From positions 18,214 to 82,213 of the forward strand of contig JAUXGA010000011.1 of the NCBI GenBank assembly GCA_030622545.1: a DNA stretch of 64,000 nt, written 5' to 3'. Origin of the DNA: a bacterium (GTDB taxonomy: Bacteria; Electryoneota; RPQS01; DYHQ01). A program made the position numbers and the translations under genes. How positions within the stretch are numbered: position 1 is the stretch's first letter; each line of letters starts with the position of its first letter. Of the stretch, positions 47,098 through 62,610 are shown one piece after another. The notes beneath the pieces are model-generated. The model was not told where the DNA came from, ran no database searches, and worked only from the letters and a program-made list of their open reading frames with translations.

Positions 47098-47112
47098 GAA
47101 GCCTTCTCGCCG

Positions 47113-47240
47113 TAGGGGCCGACCCAAGTGTCTGCCCGCCGATACTTGGGCTTGAACGCGGGCGCACACGTGGGTACGCCCCTACAACTGGATTCTGCCA
47201 CGACAATTCATAACGGGCGCACACGCGGGTACGCCCCTAC
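47113..47240 (-). repeat. Cluster of three REP sequences (GTAG-type; GTAGGGGCGTACCCRCGTGTGCGCCC) 3' of RAYT gene
   Basis: Copies at 47113-47139 (degenerate), 47160-47185 and 47215-47240, all in the same (minus) orientation; each begins with the GTAG tetranucleotide characteristic of REPs and can fold as GGGCGYAC/GTGYGCGCCC hairpin. Confidence 0.75.
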
Positions 47241-47779
47241 GCGCCGATGTTCTGTGGATTTTCTTTATCCAGTTCCCACCGCAGTGGATTGTCCCGAATA
47301 TATTCGCGAATCGCTGTTAGGTCTTTATCACCACGAATAACATGTTCGTAATAGTTTCGTTGCCACAGGCGCTTTCGAAATGGTGCCCAATTATGAGTCT
47401 TGACGTTACGAATATATTCATTTGTCGTCATGGTTTTAAACCATCGCACAATTTGCTGTAGGGGCGTACCCACGTGTGCGCCCGTTTTCATATCCGCAGA
47501 TCCGTCCTCTTCATCGGGTATTACAACAATCCTGTGAAAATGATTCGGCATTACGATGTGACAATCCAACTCCACATTGTATTTATCCGATAGTTTTTCC
47601 CACCAAATTTCCAACAGATGACCGGCTGTGTTTATCTTCATTTCGCCGCTAATAATTTCACCGAATAAACACAGATGATCCTGCGCACAAATAGTGATGA
47701 AATAGAAACCGGGCTGTGTATAGTCATAATCAGGTAATCGAATGGTTTTGCGTTTCGGATAATGATTTGGTGATATCAT
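47237..47779 (-). CDS. REP-associated tyrosine transposase (RAYT; IS200/IS605-like Y1 HuH transposase)
   Basis: MISPNHYPKRKTIRLPDYDYTQPGFYFITICAQDH..., HuH motif VMPNHFHRIVV, catalytic Tyr region RNYYEHVIRGDKDLTAIREYIRDNP; flanked by REPs; ORF-track N-terminal extension to 47893 rejected (translated REP). Confidence 0.75.
   Translation of the reverse strand: MISPNHYPKRKTIRLPDYDYTQPGFYFITICAQDHLCLFGEIISGEMKINTAGHLLEIWWEKLSDKYNVELDCHIVMPNHFHRIVVIPDEEDGSADMKTGAHVGTPLQQIVRWFKTMTTNEYIRNVKTHNWAPFRKRLWQRNYYEHVIRGDKDLTAIREYIRDNPLRWELDKENPQNIGA
47458..47484 (+). repeat. REP copy embedded in-frame inside the RAYT coding sequence (encodes ...KTGAHVGTPLQ...)
   Basis: gtaggggcgtacccacgtgtgcgcccg in opposite orientation to flanking REPs; lies between HuH motif and catalytic Tyr. 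Confidence 0.7.
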
Positions 47780-47795
47780 TAAAGACTCTATTCGC

Positions 47796-47821
47796 GGGCG
47801 CACACGCGGGTGCGCCCCTAC
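47796..47821 (-). repeat. REP copy 5' of RAYT gene
   Basis: gggcgcacacgcgggtgcgcccctac, same orientation as 3' cluster. Confidence 0.7.
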
Positions 47822-47918
47822 AATATGAACAGATATCTGTCCAATAGAAAGGGCCAGATGCTGGACTCTGCATATCTGGCCCTTCGAATTCACGAAAGCA
47901 AATGAAAGGAATTTCCAG

Positions 47919-52260: not shown

Positions 52261-52308
52261 CGCTACCTACCAAATTATGTTTACAACTATCCCCTGAATA
52301 GAATCATC

Positions 52309-53244
52309 TTAGTGTTGAATACTTGTAAGTATCCCATTATCGAAATAGAGATAATTTCCATCACCGTAAACCCATTGTTCTTGTTTGACTGAGGCAGAGC
52401 TGGTTCTATTGATTTCCTTAGGTTCACCCCAACTCATGCGCGCCTGCTGTGCAGTCATGCCAACAAATACCTTTGCCTTTTCAATTGCAGACCACACCTC
52501 GTTTGACCACTTGTAAGTAATTCTTGGATCTTCAGTAAGAAAACGACTTTCAAAACTCCGATAATCGGCATCTCTATAAACGTCACCAATATTTGTGTTC
52601 CCCACTTTTACATCTATAAAACCCTCTTCCTCTGACTTTGTCCGTATGATGAATCGGACAGGACTATCGTCGTCCCAGCCAGCTACAATATCAATAACCT
52701 TGACCGGTACATATTTCCTCTCTAACCATATGGAACCCTCTTCGTCTGATTCTTCATTATAGGTGGATAGATGAAAAGTTTTATACCAAAGTGTTTTCCC
52801 CAGCCATCTGGCACGCGCACTGTCTAAATCAGCTATTGGCATAATATCGGGTATAGAGCCCAGTGTGGCTTCACCAGAATAGACTTGGTTATTGTCGGTC
52901 ATCTTAATTAAGATCACGTCCAAAATGTCGCCCGTACCAAAAACCTCGACAACTGTACCAATCCGTCCTACACATTCCTCATAGGTTGGGCACCCATATT
53001 TACCTCCGCCGCCCTTAAAGCTTCGATATCCATATTTTTGAAGACCTTTTCTTCTGGGAAGAAAAATGAACTTTTCCCCGACCCAGCTCTCAATAGGCAA
53101 GAATGTAAAGGCTTCTCTCTCAGATGTATCTTTCTCTGACTTTTGCGTCCCGATGGAGCCTTCTCGTATATACGGATTTTGGGCCAAAAGAATGCCCACG
53201 TAGCAACTAAATAGCATCACACCTAAAAAAAAGAATCTATTCAT
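52309..53244 (-). CDS. Secreted hypothetical protein with C-terminal SmpA/OmlA (BamE-like) domain; AT-richer insert in pil operon
   Basis: Signal peptide MNRFFFLGVMLFSCYVGILLAQ; C-terminus KVFVGMTAQQARMSWGEPKEIN...EQWVYGDGNYLYFDNGILTSIQ resembles BamE/SmpA_OmlA fold. Confidence 0.5.
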   Translation of the reverse strand: MNRFFFLGVMLFSCYVGILLAQNPYIREGSIGTQKSEKDTSEREAFTFLPIESWVGEKFIFLPRRKGLQKYGYRSFKGGGGKYGCPTYEECVGRIGTVVEVFGTGDILDVILIKMTDNNQVYSGEATLGSIPDIMPIADLDSARARWLGKTLWYKTFHLSTYNEESDEEGSIWLERKYVPVKVIDIVAGWDDDSPVRFIIRTKSEEEGFIDVKVGNTNIGDVYRDADYRSFESRFLTEDPRITYKWSNEVWSAIEKAKVFVGMTAQQARMSWGEPKEINRTSSASVKQEQWVYGDGNYLYFDNGILTSIQH

Positions 53245-53300
53245 TGCTGTTCCTCCCCATCGTGGTACACACTATTAAACCCCCAACTCCGCAAGTCAAA

Positions 53301-55007
53301 TTAATACTCCTGCACAGTCACGCGCAGAAGCTCGTGTGGCGTTGTAATTCCGGCGTAGATTTTGTTCAGGGCGGCGTCTCGCAGCGAAATCATGCCGAGC
53401 TTCACCGCCATCTCGCGCAATTCTTCTTCGTTCGCATTTTCGAAGACAAGCCGCCGCATGGGCTGCTTCATCTCCAGAAGCTCGAAGATGCCCGTTCGTC
53501 CGTAGTAGCCGGTGTTGCGGCAATGCACACACCCGCGCCCGCGATAAAATTCTTTGTCTTTCATATCATCGCGTGTGAGTTTCATCGCTTCCAACTCGGC
53601 ATCGCTGGGGACGTAGGTTTCCTTGCATTGCGGACAAATCCTGCGCACAAGCCGCTGTGCCATGACGAGGTTCAAACATGACCCCACCAAAAACGGCGGC
53701 ACACCGATATCCAGAAGACGTGTAATCGTCGAAGGAGCGTCATTCGCGTGCACGGTCGAAAAAACCAGATGCCCCGTCAGTGAAAATTTAATGGAAATAT
53801 CCGCCGTTTCTTCATCTCGAATCTCACCGATGAGGAGCTTGTCGGGGTCTTGACGCAAAATCGAGCGCAACGCGTTGGCGAATGTTAAACCAATCTTCGG
53901 TTTCGTCTGCACCTGATTAATCCCCGCCAGATGATATTCGACCGGGTCTTCGACGGTGACGATATTATCCGCTTCGGATTTGATTTCTTTAAGCGAAGCG
54001 TAGAGTGTCGTAGATTTACCGGAACCCGTCGGGCCGGAAATAATTATCATTCCATACGGCTGACGAATCCAGCGCCGGAAAATTTTCAGCAGCTCATCGT
54101 CCATGCCAAGAGTGCTCAGGTTAAACGCAAAACCGGTTTTGTCCAGCAGACGCAGCACAATCTTTTCGCCGTTCACTGTCGGCAGAATCGACACACGCAC
54201 ATCCACTTCTTTATCCGGTGAAATAATCGTGAAGCGTCCATCCTGCGGCAGCCGCTTCTCCGCGATGTTGAGTTTGGAAAGGATTTTCACGCGGGAGATA
54301 ATTCCCGGATGCGAAGATTTCGGCGGCGTCATCACTTCCTGCAGCACACCATCAATGCGAAACCGCACCGCGACTTTCTCTTCCTGCACCTCGATATGAA
54401 TATCCGTTGCGCGCTCGCGCAGCGCATCGGCAATCATCAGATTGACCAGTTTCACCACCGGCGCATCTTCGAGACCTGCTTGAACTTTCGTCATGTCCAT
54501 CAGGCCTTCTTCTTCGGTGTCCGATTCCGTGAAGAATTGCAGATTCCCGATAACATCGGTCACTTCGCCGGCCTTGCGGATTTTGACATAGAGCTGTTCG
54601 ATGGCGTTTTCAATCACGCCGGGCGCAGCAAGTGACGCGTCGATGGACATGTTCGACAGTTTCTGAAGGTTGTCAATCGCGATAATATCATCCGGGTCAG
54701 CCATCGCGACTTTCAGCGTTCCGTCGTCAATCGCGAAGGGAATCAGACGATTCTCGCGCGCGAAGGGTTCAGGGACGATGCGCACGGCATCATCCGTGGC
54801 AACGAGAATATCATCGCTTTTCACAAACGGAACATCCCACTGCTGCGCCAGCCCGGCATAGACATCCTCTTCCACCACATAGCCCAACGCCACCAACACT
54901 TCGCCAAGCTTTTGATGCGTGTCTTTCTGACGCGACAGCGCTTCGCTGAGTTGCTTCTCGGTAATTTTTTCTTGTTCGAGAAGAATTTCGCCTATCTTTT
55001 TTCGCAT
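53301..55007 (-). CDS. pilB: Type IV pilus assembly ATPase PilB (GspE family)
   Basis: N-terminal GSPII domain, Walker A GPTGSGKSTTLYA, Asp box, Walker B, tetracysteine CPQC...CVHC zinc site. Confidence 0.9.
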   Translation of the reverse strand: MRKKIGEILLEQEKITEKQLSEALSRQKDTHQKLGEVLVALGYVVEEDVYAGLAQQWDVPFVKSDDILVATDDAVRIVPEPFARENRLIPFAIDDGTLKVAMADPDDIIAIDNLQKLSNMSIDASLAAPGVIENAIEQLYVKIRKAGEVTDVIGNLQFFTESDTEEEGLMDMTKVQAGLEDAPVVKLVNLMIADALRERATDIHIEVQEEKVAVRFRIDGVLQEVMTPPKSSHPGIISRVKILSKLNIAEKRLPQDGRFTIISPDKEVDVRVSILPTVNGEKIVLRLLDKTGFAFNLSTLGMDDELLKIFRRWIRQPYGMIIISGPTGSGKSTTLYASLKEIKSEADNIVTVEDPVEYHLAGINQVQTKPKIGLTFANALRSILRQDPDKLLIGEIRDEETADISIKFSLTGHLVFSTVHANDAPSTITRLLDIGVPPFLVGSCLNLVMAQRLVRRICPQCKETYVPSDAELEAMKLTRDDMKDKEFYRGRGCVHCRNTGYYGRTGIFELLEMKQPMRRLVFENANEEELREMAVKLGMISLRDAALNKIYAGITTPHELLRVTVQEY

Positions 55008-55111: not shown

Positions 55112-57463
55112 TTACCCTCCCGAGCCGCGTTGAAGCTGCACAATCACCGCGTCGCTGGCCACGCCTCCATAGAAGAGCAGTTCGACGCGCACTTCACAGG
55201 TGGTTTCCACCGTAATGGGATCCGGAAACGCCCATTGCATTTCGCAGCGAAGCCAGAGAATCGACTGGCCGTTATCCGCCGGCGGAGTGCCCGTGACATA
55301 TTCATCGGCGCGCGCGCCGCCCGTGGAGGACGTGTAGAAATGCCCGCGCTGAGAAAAATAGAACACCCGCGCACCGTTTATCGGTACATGATGCCCATCC
55401 TGAACCGTCGCCAGACATCGAACGCGGGTCGGGTCGCCATCGTCGAGGAAATGCCAGTGCTGCGGCGTGCATAGAAGGTTCAATTCCCCTTCCTGAAGCG
55501 GCAGAATGAATGTGGTGTCTTCGCGCACGGTTCCCTCAGGCGGCTGGCATTCCGCAGTGATAATCACCTGCTGGAATGTCTGCGAGCTCAGCCATGTGAG
55601 CTGCGTGTAAGCAAAACCCGCTCGCGAGTCGTCATTCATATCCGGATTCCCCGTATAAACCTGTTCAGAGGCAATCGAAGCGATATCCGGTTCTATACTG
55701 AAGAACACGACCCAATTATTCGAGACCGGGTTATTAAACATATCTCGAACCTGCGCCGCCACTTCAACCATCCACGCTCCACCCCCTGCGTCCGTGCCGA
55801 TTTCTCTCGGCTGTATGCTGATGGACGCCGGTGGCCCGGAGACAACAGAGATGTTCGATTTATGCGCGAAGATTTCCTCGCCTCCCACATAGGTGGACGC
55901 TCGAAGATCAACGATGCCCGGATAAATCCCCGCGTTCAAAGTTACTCGCGCAACACCGCTGGATGTTTGTGCAGAATCGATATCGCCGCTGCCGTTGATA
56001 TTGACTCCTCCTCCCGGACCGACGACAATCTGGAACGTCACCCACTGCCCGTCCGGTACCGGATTCTGATTGGCATCCAAAACCGTCGCTTCAACAAGCG
56101 CCTGATCCACGCCGCCCGTCCCCCGTACCTGAATCGAAGCCGGTGATACATTCAGCGCCAGCGTATTGGCCGTTCCCGCCACGATGCGCACCGTTACCGA
56201 ATCAACTGCTTGACCGACGAATGCCTTCACCTTGGCATTTCCGGCTTCCGTACCGGGATTCAGCGTCGCGCGTGCGATGCCGTCGTTGTCGGTCGGAGAG
56301 TTTTCGTTAATCGATCCGTGCGTGGTGGAGAAACTGACAAGTGCTCCTTCGAAAACAGGATTGCCCATCGTATCATAAACCTGAGCCGTTACCGAAACCA
56401 GCTCTTGTGAACCGATATAGACTTCATTCGGCGTTGCATCAACACTGACAGTTTTTGGCCCGCCGGGATTCACTATTACCGTGAATTCATTCGACACGAC
56501 CTCTCCCACATTAGCGTAAATCATTGCCGTACCTCGCGTCGGGCAGAAATAATAGGTATTGAAAGCCACACCGTTTGATGTTTTAACAGTATCGTTTTTG
56601 AAATCACCGCAATCGGTATGGAACAGAACATCCGTATTATCCGGCGCGCGAAGTCCGTTCTCCAAGAAGACATTGACACGCACCGTTGAGGAATCTTTTC
56701 CGGCGATGCCTTCATCCGGCTGAACCATCAAATTCACTTCACCAACCGGTTCTTCGGGCTCGATGACAATATAAGCAGTATCGGCCAGCCCCCAATCGGA
56801 AAAGCGCGCGATGACCATCGCTGAATCGGGCGCGGTGGGAATGCCGTAAACATCTTTAAACGTCGAGTGCGCGACACCGAAACCGTCCGTCACCACAGGC
56901 GATTCGACAGTGCCAAATCCCGGCGTTGCGAAACGGATGGTATCAGCCGCTTGCGGTTCTCCATATTGATCTTTGAGTATCGCCGTGATATTCGCGAAAC
57001 TTCGACCGCGGTCAGCGTAGATGACTTTGGTGTCCGTACTGATAATCAATGTACCGAAACGGGATGCGGTGCTGTTGACCCAAATCGTCGCTGTGTCAGC
57101 TTTGCCGCCCGCCATGGCGATGATATTGAATTCGCCAAAGATACCCGCCGAACTCCACACCGTTGCCGTCTGTCCGTTGGCATCGGTGACCTCGGGTTGT
57201 CCCACGACGCCGCCGGTCGCTCGCATCTCGACCTGAATGTCTTCGATTCCGACGAAACTGTTATCATAAACCGTTATCATCACCGAAACCGTATCCGAAC
57301 CGCCCGCTTCCACATCCACACTTTCGCGAGAAAGTTCAACGTAGATTCCTCCCACGTTCTGGGCTCCTCCTTCGGACGTCACACCTTTCTTCTGAGTGCA
57401 TCCAAACCCAAGGACGAGAAAACAAGCCATCCCCATAATAATGGCTCTTTTGGCTACCCGCAT
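55112..57463 (-). CDS. Large lipoprotein with tandem bacterial Ig-like (Big_1/invasin-type) domains
   Basis: Start MRVAKRAIIMGMACFLVLGFGCTQ (GGAGG-N6-ATG; lipobox); ~7 repeats of ~90 aa with ...TDANGxA/V..L..G.......V.A motif; ORF-track start 57601 over-extended. Confidence 0.7.
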   Translation of the reverse strand: MRVAKRAIIMGMACFLVLGFGCTQKKGVTSEGGAQNVGGIYVELSRESVDVEAGGSDTVSVMITVYDNSFVGIEDIQVEMRATGGVVGQPEVTDANGQTATVWSSAGIFGEFNIIAMAGGKADTATIWVNSTASRFGTLIISTDTKVIYADRGRSFANITAILKDQYGEPQAADTIRFATPGFGTVESPVVTDGFGVAHSTFKDVYGIPTAPDSAMVIARFSDWGLADTAYIVIEPEEPVGEVNLMVQPDEGIAGKDSSTVRVNVFLENGLRAPDNTDVLFHTDCGDFKNDTVKTSNGVAFNTYYFCPTRGTAMIYANVGEVVSNEFTVIVNPGGPKTVSVDATPNEVYIGSQELVSVTAQVYDTMGNPVFEGALVSFSTTHGSINENSPTDNDGIARATLNPGTEAGNAKVKAFVGQAVDSVTVRIVAGTANTLALNVSPASIQVRGTGGVDQALVEATVLDANQNPVPDGQWVTFQIVVGPGGGVNINGSGDIDSAQTSSGVARVTLNAGIYPGIVDLRASTYVGGEEIFAHKSNISVVSGPPASISIQPREIGTDAGGGAWMVEVAAQVRDMFNNPVSNNWVVFFSIEPDIASIASEQVYTGNPDMNDDSRAGFAYTQLTWLSSQTFQQVIITAECQPPEGTVREDTTFILPLQEGELNLLCTPQHWHFLDDGDPTRVRCLATVQDGHHVPINGARVFYFSQRGHFYTSSTGGARADEYVTGTPPADNGQSILWLRCEMQWAFPDPITVETTCEVRVELLFYGGVASDAVIVQLQRGSGG

Positions 57464-57542
57464 AGCTACCTCCAACATTGCACCTATTCCCCTCTCTAAA
57501 AAGCCATATTCAATAAAATGTTTTTTAACCGTAAAATATTCC

Positions 57543-57569
57543 GTAGGGGCGCTCCCGTGTGTGCGCCCG
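57543..57569 (+). repeat. REP copy (GTAGGGGCGCTCCCGTGTGTGCGCCCG)
   Basis: Same family as the REPs around the RAYT gene; located between Big-domain gene and Wza-like gene. Confidence 0.7.
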
Positions 57570-57597
57570 TTTCTGCAGCATGGAGCCGCGTGATTCA

Positions 57598-59238
57598 TCA
57601 TTTAAGACTCGCAGCGATAAACGCAATCGTCGCAACTTGTGAGAGCACTACGATACCGTCTTTGATCTGACTCCAAGTGGTGACTTCCGGTTTGGGCGGG
57701 ACGAAAATAATGTCGCCCGGATCAAGCCGCACCTTCGACGAATAAATCACCACCGCGCCGCTGCTCGCTTTTACTATCCGCGTCTTCGATTTCCAGCCGC
57801 CGCGATTAACACCGCCGACCGCTCGAAGGTAATCGTTCAGTTTCCATCCCGGATGATACGCGGTTTCTCCATTTTGATTCACATACCCCAACATCCGAAT
57901 GCCGAGCGGCTGTCCAGGAATTTCCAGCACATCGCCGTCGCGCAAAACGATATCTTCGCTGTTATCATTTTGCAAATCGATGACGACCGTCGTCCCCAGC
58001 CAGCGTTCTAAAGCCGCCGTGAGTTCCCGTTCTGCGCCGCGCTTTTCGAGAGTATTCCCAGGGTCGCGCGGGCGAAGCAAGCGTCCTTTTTCCGGCTGGC
58101 GAAATTCATAATCGGGTGCGCGAACCAAACGAGCACTGTTCAGCGCCGCTGTCGGCAGCGTCCCACCGGCTTGAGTTAAAACGTCGCGCAGAGTTGTCTT
58201 TCCGATTTCGAGCGGATAACTCCCCGGCCTTGTCACTTCACCTTTAAGCGTTACCGTACCGAATCGCTTCCGTTCCGGTTCCATCGGGATATAGAGCCGG
58301 TCGCCGGGCTGGAATTCACTTTCATGCAGTACCGCATCCTCAACATCTACCCGGCGTCCATCCGCACGTATGATGTACGCGTCCTGCACGTTCGCAGACG
58401 CGCGAATGCCGCCCGCTAACTCAAGCAAGACTTCGATACGGTCGCCGGGCACATATTCGAAAAGCCCCGGAGAAAACACGCCGCCAAAAACACCAACTTC
58501 ACTCGGCCCCTCTTCTTTCAACGGCACGCGCACCACATCTCCGTCATGCAGCAGCGGATTGGCATCCGTGCGACCGGCACGCTCGAAGAGCAGCAAATCT
58601 GCGCGTTGTTCATTTTCAATATCTCCGGCAGGAATCACTCGAAGACGGCGCTGCGACGCGACAATGACAGACGTCGTATCCCATTCGGCGCGAGACCTGC
58701 GTAAGAAACCTCCCGCCATCCAGACCGCATCGGCCACGCGCGCGGTCGCAGGCAATAGGTAACTCCCCGGCTCCATCACGGCTCCGCAAACATGGACGCG
58801 GAACTTCCGCACTTCACGCAGTGAAACGGTAACTTCCGCACCGGAGAACCGCTCGCAAATTTTTGCGATCATCGCGTCTTTGGCTTTCGCCAGAGACATG
58901 CCCGCTACTTTGACCGGCCCGACCGCCGGAATCACCGCTTCTCCCTCAGCGTTGACTTCCACCGGCAATTGTGTCACCGTCGGACGCCAGAGAAAAATAT
59001 CCAGCTTATCTCCGGGGCCCAGCTCGAAAATTTCCGGATCCACCGGCCCTTCAAAAAAGGTTTCCGATACCGGAAGCCGCTGAGGAGTGGACTTCAAGAG
59101 TTCTTCCAGCTTCGTTTTGCCAGGCGCCATGCCCGTCAGCGAAACACTCTGAGCGAAAACCACGTCCCCAAGCAACCCTACGATAAGCCCGATTCCGAGG
59201 ACGAATAGAAATAAATTACTCTTCGTCATGTTCCTCAT
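57598..59238 (-). CDS. Polysaccharide export protein (Wza/GumB-like; Poly_export + SLBB domains)
   Basis: Signal peptide; FELGPGDKLDIFLWRP...LPVEVNAEGEAVIPAVGPVKVAGMSLAKAKDAI (Poly_export motif); repeated SLBB-like segments (LRDGDVL.IP). Confidence 0.75.
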   Translation of the reverse strand: MRNMTKSNLFLFVLGIGLIVGLLGDVVFAQSVSLTGMAPGKTKLEELLKSTPQRLPVSETFFEGPVDPEIFELGPGDKLDIFLWRPTVTQLPVEVNAEGEAVIPAVGPVKVAGMSLAKAKDAMIAKICERFSGAEVTVSLREVRKFRVHVCGAVMEPGSYLLPATARVADAVWMAGGFLRRSRAEWDTTSVIVASQRRLRVIPAGDIENEQRADLLLFERAGRTDANPLLHDGDVVRVPLKEEGPSEVGVFGGVFSPGLFEYVPGDRIEVLLELAGGIRASANVQDAYIIRADGRRVDVEDAVLHESEFQPGDRLYIPMEPERKRFGTVTLKGEVTRPGSYPLEIGKTTLRDVLTQAGGTLPTAALNSARLVRAPDYEFRQPEKGRLLRPRDPGNTLEKRGAERELTAALERWLGTTVVIDLQNDNSEDIVLRDGDVLEIPGQPLGIRMLGYVNQNGETAYHPGWKLNDYLRAVGGVNRGGWKSKTRIVKASSGAVVIYSSKVRLDPGDIIFVPPKPEVTTWSQIKDGIVVLSQVATIAFIAASLK

Positions 59239-61839: not shown

Positions 61840-62463
61840 TTATCCGCGTATCGGACGTTCGACGGAGCGCGGTTCCCGCGCCTTCTTTGCCACCGGTTGC
61901 TGAGGGAAACAGGTGATAACAAGTTCCAATACTTCCTGATCTTCGATACGACGCCGCTTGGATTGCGTGAAACGAATATCCCGGAACCGGCTGGCGAATT
62001 CCGGCGTCGTTTCCAAAATGTCCATGAGTCGGGAGACGCGCTCGAATTCCTTTTCATCCTTCTTGATTTTCGAAATGGCTTTGATGACGAGCCGGTTGTG
62101 TTCGAATTTCAGCCCGGTAAGCGCCATGCCGTCAGGCAATATATGCGCCAGCGCTTCTAATCTTGCCGCCCAGAGGAAGCGATCTTTTTCGAGCTTCGCC
62201 AGCGACATGACATCCTGCTTGGAAACCTTGGTGCCTTCGCGCCGGAGCGAATCGAGCTGATGCTTAATGTCAGCAATCTTGTCCTGTTTGGACTCGACAA
62301 TATCGCGAAGCTCCCGGTGTTTTGACCATGTGAAACCGCTCAAGACGATAAGCACGACCGCGATAATCGCCAGATATATCAGTGACCGGCGCTCCCGCAC
62401 TCGCGCCCGCAATACCGCCTCGCCTTCCCCCTTATTCAGATTAATTGTAAATTGCTTTATCAC
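61840..62463 (-). CDS. PilN-like inner-membrane pilus assembly protein
   Basis: Short cytoplasmic N-terminus (MIKQFTINLNKGE), single TM, coiled-coil periplasmic region; position upstream of pilO. Confidence 0.5.
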   Translation of the reverse strand: MIKQFTINLNKGEGEAVLRARVRERRSLIYLAIIAVVLIVLSGFTWSKHRELRDIVESKQDKIADIKHQLDSLRREGTKVSKQDVMSLAKLEKDRFLWAARLEALAHILPDGMALTGLKFEHNRLVIKAISKIKKDEKEFERVSRLMDILETTPEFASRFRDIRFTQSKRRRIEDQEVLELVITCFPQQPVAKKAREPRSVERPIRG

Positions 62464-62533: not shown

Positions 62534-62610
62534 GTAGGGGCGTACCCGCGTGTGCGCCCGTTTTTGCACCTATTTGGATTTCGCGGGCAGACACGTGGGT
62601 CAGCCCCTAC
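62534..62610. repeat. BIME-like pair of inverted REPs (GTAGGGGCGTACCCGCGTGTGCGCCCG ... GGGCAGACACGTGGGTCAGCCCCTAC)
   Basis: Two REP copies in opposite orientation separated by ~25 nt. Confidence 0.7.

Follow-up and report, generated by a model that had tools for sequence, protein, structure and literature searches.

The 64-kb stretch of DNA analysed here (the window) very probably carries a REPtron with a RAYT of TnpA-Y1 subclass 2.4, in which a loop of the transposase is encoded by a REP read in-frame, a family-wide feature, and in which this REP is old, tolerated by the enzyme and kept as REP DNA. A sequence-only reading had drawn attention to a REP in opposite orientation lying in-frame between the HuH motif and the catalytic Tyr of this gene; the observation is confirmed (Table 1), and the interpretation then placed on it is partly supported.

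The RAYT gene and its flanking REPs

The locus is a REPtron, that is, a RAYT gene flanked by cognate GTAG-headed REPs, copies of which also occur elsewhere in the window, at distances of 10-15 kb from the gene. A search of the 64-kb window with the REP 26-mer GTAGGGGCGTACCCRCGTGTGCGCCC gave six matches at up to three mismatches, against 0.00 expected from shuffles, and a looser census gave eight copies. In the REPs, GTAG is followed by GGGCGTAC/GTGCGCCC, and the foot of the stem has three G-C pairs. The GTAG head of the copy directly downstream provides the TAG stop codon of the RAYT gene, and the copy directly upstream, which has its GTAG on the coding strand, carries the perfect stem variant GCGCAC. 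Folded as ssDNA, the doublet beside the gene reaches -23.4 kcal/mol (z = -3.4). The second doublet is under no long ORF and lies between ORFs ending at 62463 and 62658. The dispersed copy at 57543 is located upstream of a probable lipoprotein start and was considered as a second in-frame intragenic REP, a candidate rejected because the N-terminus of the ORF over it is artefactual and a lipoprotein-type start (MRVAKRAIIMGMACFLVLGFGC) lies downstream. The flanking REPs had been read as sharing one orientation, which holds for the copies beginning at 47160, 47215 and 47796 (all on the minus strand) but not for the copy at 47112-37, which is of another stem subtype and lies on the plus strand; since this copy is inverted relative to the others, the flanking REPs are not all in one orientation. 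Two positions were also adjusted, the in-gene REP ending at 47483 instead of 47484 and the copy formerly placed at 47113 occupying 47112-47137.

Table 1 Positions of the RAYT gene, its motifs and the REP copies in the window.
Feature	Position	Strand	Basis or remark
B-type REP, stem subtype GGGCCGAC/GTCTGCCC	47112-47137	+	Census
A-type REP	47160-47185	-	26/26 identical to in-gene copy
REPIN-like inverted doublet, heads outward (B-type 47112-37 and A-type 47160-85)	47112..47185		
REP downstream of RAYT gene	47215..47240	-	Census
RAYT / TnpAREP gene, 180 aa plus stop	47237..47779	-	ORF, Pfam, AF2/Foldseek
YIRDNP, catalytic Tyr Y160 and metal-ligand N164	47285..47302	-	phmmer alignment to 4ER8
WQRNYYEHVIR, GTAG-guide recognition motif	47333..47365	-	phmmer alignment to 4ER8
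In-gene REP	47458..47483	+	GTAG head on template strand
HuH motif, H80-F-H82	47534..47542	-	Sequence
REP upstream of RAYT gene	47796..47821	-	16 nt before ATG
Dispersed REP	57543..57568	+	4 mismatches to in-gene copy; intergenic
Second REPIN-like doublet (A-type 62534-59, B-type 62585-610)	62534..62610	A-type +, B-type -	

The RAYT ORF, taken as 47237-47779 on the minus strand, starts with MISPNHYPKRKTIRL, and the extra N-terminal residues of the obg frame (MCARVQAQVSAGRHLGRP) and of the RAYT ORF itself (VGAHPRVRP), suspected from the outset to be artefacts, proved to be so. The gene occurs once in the 64-kb window and has dprA, obg and a gene for a protein with a T9SS sorting tail as neighbours; both here and in a syntenic relative, L001, it is situated between obg and the T9SS-tail gene. 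The protein matches Pfam PF01797 (Y1_Tnp) over residues 61-164 with 28.5 bits against a cut-off of 23, and the earlier description of a RAYT gene flanked by GTAG REPs holds. The best NCBIfam match is REP_Tyr_transpos (NF047646) with 58.3 bits, ahead of transpos_IS200 with 24 bits; as this score is under the equivalog cut-off of 80, the match was not taken as proof of membership. More than 7990 homologues were found in databases, several of them named 'REP element-mobilizing transposase RayT'. An AF2 model built with 27 homologues has a mean pLDDT of 83 and a pTM of 0.78, and Foldseek comparison with the PDB returned 4ER8, the E. coli TnpAREP with a REP hairpin, as best match (E = 1.5e-6), followed by the IS608, ISDra2 and IS200 transposases; all of the top 30 PDB matches (30/30) are Y1 transposases.

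The HuH motif is present as had been stated. By phmmer alignment to 4ER8, Y160 corresponds to E. coli Y115 and N164 to N119, and W139, Q140, Y144, E145, H146 and R149 align with W94, Q95, W99, E100, H101 and R104, the GTAG-recognition residues having the same spacing in the window protein as in E. coli TnpAREP. The W94-R104 residues of the latter contact the GTAG guide (Quentin 2018, PMC6006769). NYYEHVIR, formerly assigned to the catalytic-Tyr region, therefore aligns with the W94-R104 segment, the predicted catalytic Tyr being Y160 in YIRDNP. Because the catalytic and GTAG-binding residues are complete, with none of H80, H82, Y160, N164, W139, Q140, E145, H146 and R149 missing, the RAYT gene looks functional, and the enzyme is probably active judging from its sequence; the suspicion that it might be inactivated finds no footing in these residues. 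An Arg, R83, stands where 112 of the 120 closest homologues have Gly. It was weighed as an inactivating change and rejected: rare among close homologues, yet at a position that varies in the family as a whole. The protein ends 15 residues past YIRDNP, consistent with the absence of a C-terminal extension.

The in-frame REP and its place in the family

On the gene strand the in-gene REP is read as G100-A-H-V-G-T-P-L107 (codons 47459-47482). On the GTAG strand it folds into a hairpin of 8 bp, one of them a G.T wobble, around a 6-nt loop (-7.0 kcal/mol, z = -1.5); on the coding strand the corresponding pair is a C.A mismatch and the sequence does not fold better than its shuffles (z = 0.03). The A/T residue pair of the window protein at unit positions 2 and 6 corresponds to this wobble and this mismatch on the respective strands. 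With these two z values, an mRNA-hairpin or regulatory role of the window's in-gene REP is not favoured. The HuH-to-Tyr distance is 80 aa, in agreement with the earlier proposal that the insertion lengthens a spacing that is 58-67 aa in most subclasses and has a median of 88 in subclass 2.4 (PMC6006769). The AF2 model gives pLDDT values under 50 for residues 92-104 and starts helix alphaC at residue 106; as modelled, the REP codes for the last part of a disordered surface loop and for the alphaC N-cap. Given this disorder and the N-cap position, the enzyme is predicted to tolerate the REP-encoded peptide and is probably active, and we infer that the loop encoded by the REP does not affect catalysis, tolerance here being read from a low-confidence model loop together with conservation in the family.

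In-frame REPs between HuH and Y have been described as unique to TnpA-Y1 subclass 2.4 and predominant in it (Quentin, Siguier, Chandler and Fichant 2018, BMC Genomics 19:475, PMC6006769); this subclass corresponds to group 4 in the RAYT classification by Bertels et al. 2017. In the same work the insertions of subclass 2.4 were located in the beta3-alphaC loop and modelled as a peripheral extension, the signature of the subclass was given as NH[IFV]H, WQ and YIxNNP (Table 1 of that paper), an 8-aa insertion closing alphaB and the lack of a conserved C-terminal extension domain were named as further traits, the cognate REPs were characterised as long canonical GT[AG]G hairpins, and REPs with an 8-bp stem and a 6-nt loop were listed in its Table S1, e.g. 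GTAGGGGCGGACCCGCGTGTCCGCCC from Desulfomonile tiedjei. The window protein has NHFH and WQ in agreement with this signature, and YIRDNP agrees at five of six positions, with D for N; the in-frame REP, the 80-aa spacing and the long canonical REPs are likewise subclass 2.4 features. By its motifs, loop and REP type the window gene is very probably an intact member of subclass 2.4 / RAYT group 4, and the REP inside it is an already published hallmark of that group. A literature search for REPs inside RAYT genes found them described only in Quentin 2018 (PMC6006769); they are not mentioned in the passages of Bertels 2017 that this search found, and no paper containing VGADLRVCP, GEHKVRPY or the other peptide strings searched for was found.

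Among the best 120 of the more than 7990 relatives, GxHxGxP[LV] stands just before alphaC, four residues ahead of the helix, in 107, and a VGAD-type unit is found in 98. The HuH-to-Tyr distance of these 120 has a median of 86 and a range of 73-178, the window protein being at the short end. Most relatives carry a whole series made of VGADLRVCP, which is the other-strand translation of the same REP type, variable partial repeats and GAHxGAPL; the window gene holds only the 3' half of the doublet, GAHVGTPL, and its loop is among the shortest. Its GTPL is a genome-specific T variant of the GAPL found in the family. In an alignment of 27 relatives the segment is among the best conserved, with G104, P106 and L107 invariant and G100 and H102 conserved at 90% or above.

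Genome loci were collected from many phyla (80, or 81 with the window), of which 73 had parseable loops. In 35 of the 81 loci, the window counted, the in-gene unit occurs with its frame and position unchanged, and a GTAG-headed hairpin with a stem of at least 6 bp is present in the loop of 66 of the 73 parseable loci, the other seven having no loop REP. Different subclades translate one and the same ...GCCCCTAC end in three frames, as ..PL, ..APT and ..RPY, the other-frame readings including GQPQGVAPT and GEHKVRPY. Self-insertion of a REP, which the sequence-only reading had considered unusual, is on this evidence the rule within the subfamily and not private to the window gene. The alternative allowed there, an ordinary family-conserved loop, is correct at the protein level but not at the DNA level, where the segment is REP; since the conserved segment is REP DNA in the homologues as well, the finding of a REP inside the gene stands, and the notion of an accident of the window gene falls. 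An exact-match scan of metagenome contigs for the REP variant of the window returned 19 short contigs, and in none of them does the alphaC motif of the RAYT family come after the REP.

Probable maintenance of the unit as DNA

Codons were compared over 30 unit-bearing loci, from which L001 was left out as near-identical to the window. Within the unit, GGC was found in 30 of 30 loci, CAC and GGT each in 29, CCC in 28 and CTA in 25, compared with ACC/ACA/ACG at 14/10/6, AAT/AAC at 18/12 and TAT/TAC at 21/9 in the adjacent alphaC stretch W-F-K-T-M-T-T-N-E-Y, which is invariant as protein. Synonymous positions within the unit hardly vary from phylum to phylum, whereas the alphaC codons next door drift. 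On the GTAG strand 98.5% of the stem cells are paired, and stem position 6 alternates between A-T, C-G and G-C; residues 2 and 6 of the unit covary as base pairing predicts, the pairs A/A, E/S, T/V, G/P and K/L accounting for 103 of 107. The in-gene unit is identical to an extragenic REP of the same genome in four loci (L014, L016, L044 and the window), loop nucleotides included. In a concerted-evolution test on 10 genomes, the in-gene unit differed from the extragenic REPs of its own genome by a mean minimum of 1.9 mismatches, compared with 3.5 for the units of other genomes (Wilcoxon p = 0.003, n=10); the own unit was the unique best match in 4/10, and the stop-to-stop ORF bounds used had dropped some flanking REPs. 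This result is suggestive of a tendency of the in-gene unit to match the REPs of its own genome. In 20 of 65 loci a perfect in-gene REP is present with no extragenic REP in the examined flanks, which extended ~10 kb to each side in 11 of the 20, such absence being local at ~20 kb per genome.

Fixed synonymous sites, a compensatory stem, the match to own REPs and persistence without nearby REPs together favour maintenance at the DNA level over passive tolerance, and this maintenance could stem either from selection or from ongoing exchange with the REP population. None of these four observations was seen in the main text or legends of PMC6006769. An extension of our preferred explanation, which we consider possible though doubtful, is that selection acts on the in-gene REP as a cis element of the REPtron, for example as a protected master or seed copy that would hold REP and RAYT together despite deletion and horizontal transfer, or as a site for RAYT self-sensing or regulation. 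The near-invariant synonymous sites beside drifting codons for invariant residues, the base-pairing fit of the amino-acid pairs, the reading of one REP end in three frames, the perfect in-gene REPs that have no local extragenic partner and the closer match to own REPs all point in this direction. Continual overwriting by REP insertion or gene conversion, however, gives the same synonymous pattern without any function; the REP absence is local to the ~20 kb scanned per genome, the matching test covers 10 genomes with the own unit uniquely best in 4, the coding-strand hairpin of the window (z = 0.03) speaks against a role at the mRNA level, and 7/73 family members have no loop REP at all. Only tentatively, then, do we suggest that the in-gene REP is a conserved DNA part of the REPtron, an inverted REP doublet that fills the beta3-alphaC loop and would serve as a seed or master copy linking repeat and enzyme or in self-recognition, and is not passively tolerated as the literature suggests.

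A recent accidental self-insertion of a REP into the window RAYT, possibly inactivating, is very unlikely. It would be in keeping with the identity of the in-gene REP to a copy only 270 nt away (26/26), with the genome-specific T variant, and with the dynamics of the locus seen in the closest relative. The window and L001 share gene order and 93% DNA identity, the RAYT orthologue of L001 being 96% identical, and REPs adjacent to the gene differ between the two: the RAYT-obg interval has one REP in L001 and is ~100 nt longer in the window, with an extra REP and an inverted B-type REP, and the REPIN-like doublet at 47112-47185 is missing from L001. This difference in REP content indicates that the REP cluster changed recently. 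The L001 orthologue is moreover a pseudogene, with a premature stop at Q140, on account of which the database protein P0001 has 139 aa; selection on the protein in this lineage may accordingly be weak. But the premature stop arose by a CAA-to-TAA point mutation, which, and not the REP-encoded loop, is the cause of the L001 pseudogene, and the window ORF is open with its catalytic residues intact. The unit is also present at the same codon position and in the same frame in L001, in P0002 (70%) and in homologues down to ~40% identity from many phyla; as the in-gene REP is old and its position fixed in the family, there was no recent self-insertion.

That GAHxGAPL is an ordinary protein-level motif whose likeness to a REP is coincidental or irrelevant is less credible still, for although G100, H102, G104, P106 and L107 are at least 90% conserved and P106-L107 start alphaC in the model, the synonymous sites are fixed down to the CTA codon for Leu, residues 2 and 6 covary as base pairing predicts, extragenic repeats in the genome have exactly this DNA sequence, and other subclades read the REP DNA in other frames.

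Proposed mechanism, known relatives and significance

In the preferred explanation, that of a subclass 2.4 REPtron with an old in-frame REP, the loop from beta3, which directly follows HuH, to alphaC is encoded by REP DNA in-frame, as it is in most of the subclass, most relatives having the whole inverted doublet in this place. By analogy with E. coli TnpAREP and IS608, the protein would bind REP hairpins in ssDNA and Y160 would cut and rejoin the DNA, and by analogy with the E. coli enzyme the GTAG would be read through W139, Q140, E145, H146 and R149. The in-gene REP would be kept as DNA, in its GTAG head, stem and synonymous sites, and would resemble the extragenic REPs of its own genome.

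Compared with known members of subclass 2.4, the window gene shares NH[IFV]H, WQ and YIxxNP, the lack of a C-terminal extension, a beta3-alphaC insertion of variable length in which REP DNA is translated in-frame, long canonical GTAG REPs beside the gene whose stems have three G-C pairs at the foot, and a patchy distribution over many phyla. Nothing essential differs: the window loop is minimal, with one REP unit and without the 5' VGAD-type unit, YIRDNP stands for YIxNNP, R stands for G after HuH, and the host appears to be an uncultured bacterium with a T9SS, not a cyanobacterium or a member of the Bacteroidetes in culture. E. coli TnpAREP (4ER8; Messing et al. 2012; subclass 2.2, RAYT group 2) has in common with the window protein the HuH/Y1 fold, the Tyr with an Asn four residues on, the W-Q...E-H..R residues for GTAG recognition and a REPtron arrangement with flanking REPs, at an identity of only 19%; it differs in its short beta3-alphaC loop, the absence of a REP from its coding sequence, its longer REP stems with bulges and its C-terminal extension. 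The TnpA proteins of IS200/IS605 elements (IS608, ISDra2) share the catalytic core and recognise subterminal ssDNA hairpins, which flank the gene in direct orientation. These elements are, however, multi-copy and mobile, with defined left and right ends, whereas the window RAYT occurs once in 64 kb, has a syntenic counterpart in a relative and is tied to dispersed REPs. GTAG REPs lying in-frame at permissive sites are also known from unrelated genes (Di Nocera et al. 2013, BMC Genomics 14:522), but those are sporadic insertions, e.g. in recB, unlike the window case, in which the REP sits family-wide and at a fixed position in the gene of its own transposase.

In annotation, the window gene is to be entered as an intact group-4 RAYT instead of a disrupted transposase, and ORF extensions that arise from REPs are to be disregarded. 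Subclass 2.4, in which the repeat lies physically within the gene of its enzyme, is a natural test case for the lasting association of REPs with domesticated transposases. As a lead rather than a result, maintenance of the in-gene REP at the DNA level, as the codon data suggest, could, if true, account for the persistence of REP-RAYT pairs through horizontal transfer and deletion.

REPs within RAYT genes and at other loci

In 11 loci inspected over approximately 10 kb on each side (L003, L022, L035, L042, L046, L054, L058, L071, L074, L076 and L077), the sole GTAG REPs in about 20 kb were those inside the RAYT gene, and these in-gene copies are perfect hairpins. In a metagenome contig, L085, the exact REP variant seen in the window was found within a 50-codon stop-free stretch reading ...GGAVLCDRPQEGAHVGTPLRIPTTVQGVLAARIDQLTPAEK..., possibly a REP doublet lying in-frame within an unrelated gene. 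Elsewhere in the window, a REP translated as NGRTHGSAPT opens a mechanical ORF. Translation probably begins downstream of it, at the lipoprotein-like MRVAKRAIIMGMACFLVLGFGC, which would leave this REP intergenic.

Coordinates of the features compared
Feature	Window	Other locus
Segment of mosaic identity	47237-47900	L001: 6760-7420
Q140 codon region	47360-47365	L001: 7290-7300
REP head including RAYT stop codon	47237-47240	
Extra REP cluster	47110-47213	
Unalignable block	52287-53302	L001: 477-2384
Region of the REP at ORF opening	57526-57601	
Mechanical ORF (-)	55112-57601	
REP in stop-free stretch		L085: 760-910

REPs downstream of the RAYT gene

The RAYT stop codon TAG falls within the GTAG head of the REP that lies downstream, an arrangement common to the window and its closest relative, L001, and not general among the other loci. 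Between this stop and the start of the neighbouring obg, the window carries approximately 100 nt that are absent in L001, consisting of two REPs, an additional A-type copy and an inverted B-type copy; this is a recent indel of the REP cluster.

Comparison with the closest relative

A block of approximately 1.0 kb in the window faces approximately 1.9 kb in L001 that could not be aligned to it, and would represent an indel or replacement. L001 is labelled 'uncultured Alphaproteobacteria bacterium'. One of the proteins encoded in the window region syntenic to it has a T9SS (Por_Secre_tail) sorting domain, so that either this label or the binning may be in error.

In the RAYT gene of L001, the Q140 codon CAA is changed to TAA, cutting the protein short, so that it lacks both the motif for GTAG recognition and the catalytic Tyr. 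This product is the 139-aa database protein P0001. The window copy is intact.

Alignment of the two RAYT genes revealed mosaic identity, against a regional average of 93%. Across the 5' flank and the first ~390 nt of the ORF there is a single base difference, giving R83, just after the HuH motif, in the window and G83 in L001, and ~25 differences fall in the final ~150 nt of the coding sequence. This pattern of identity suggests that the 5' part was recently recombined or converted.
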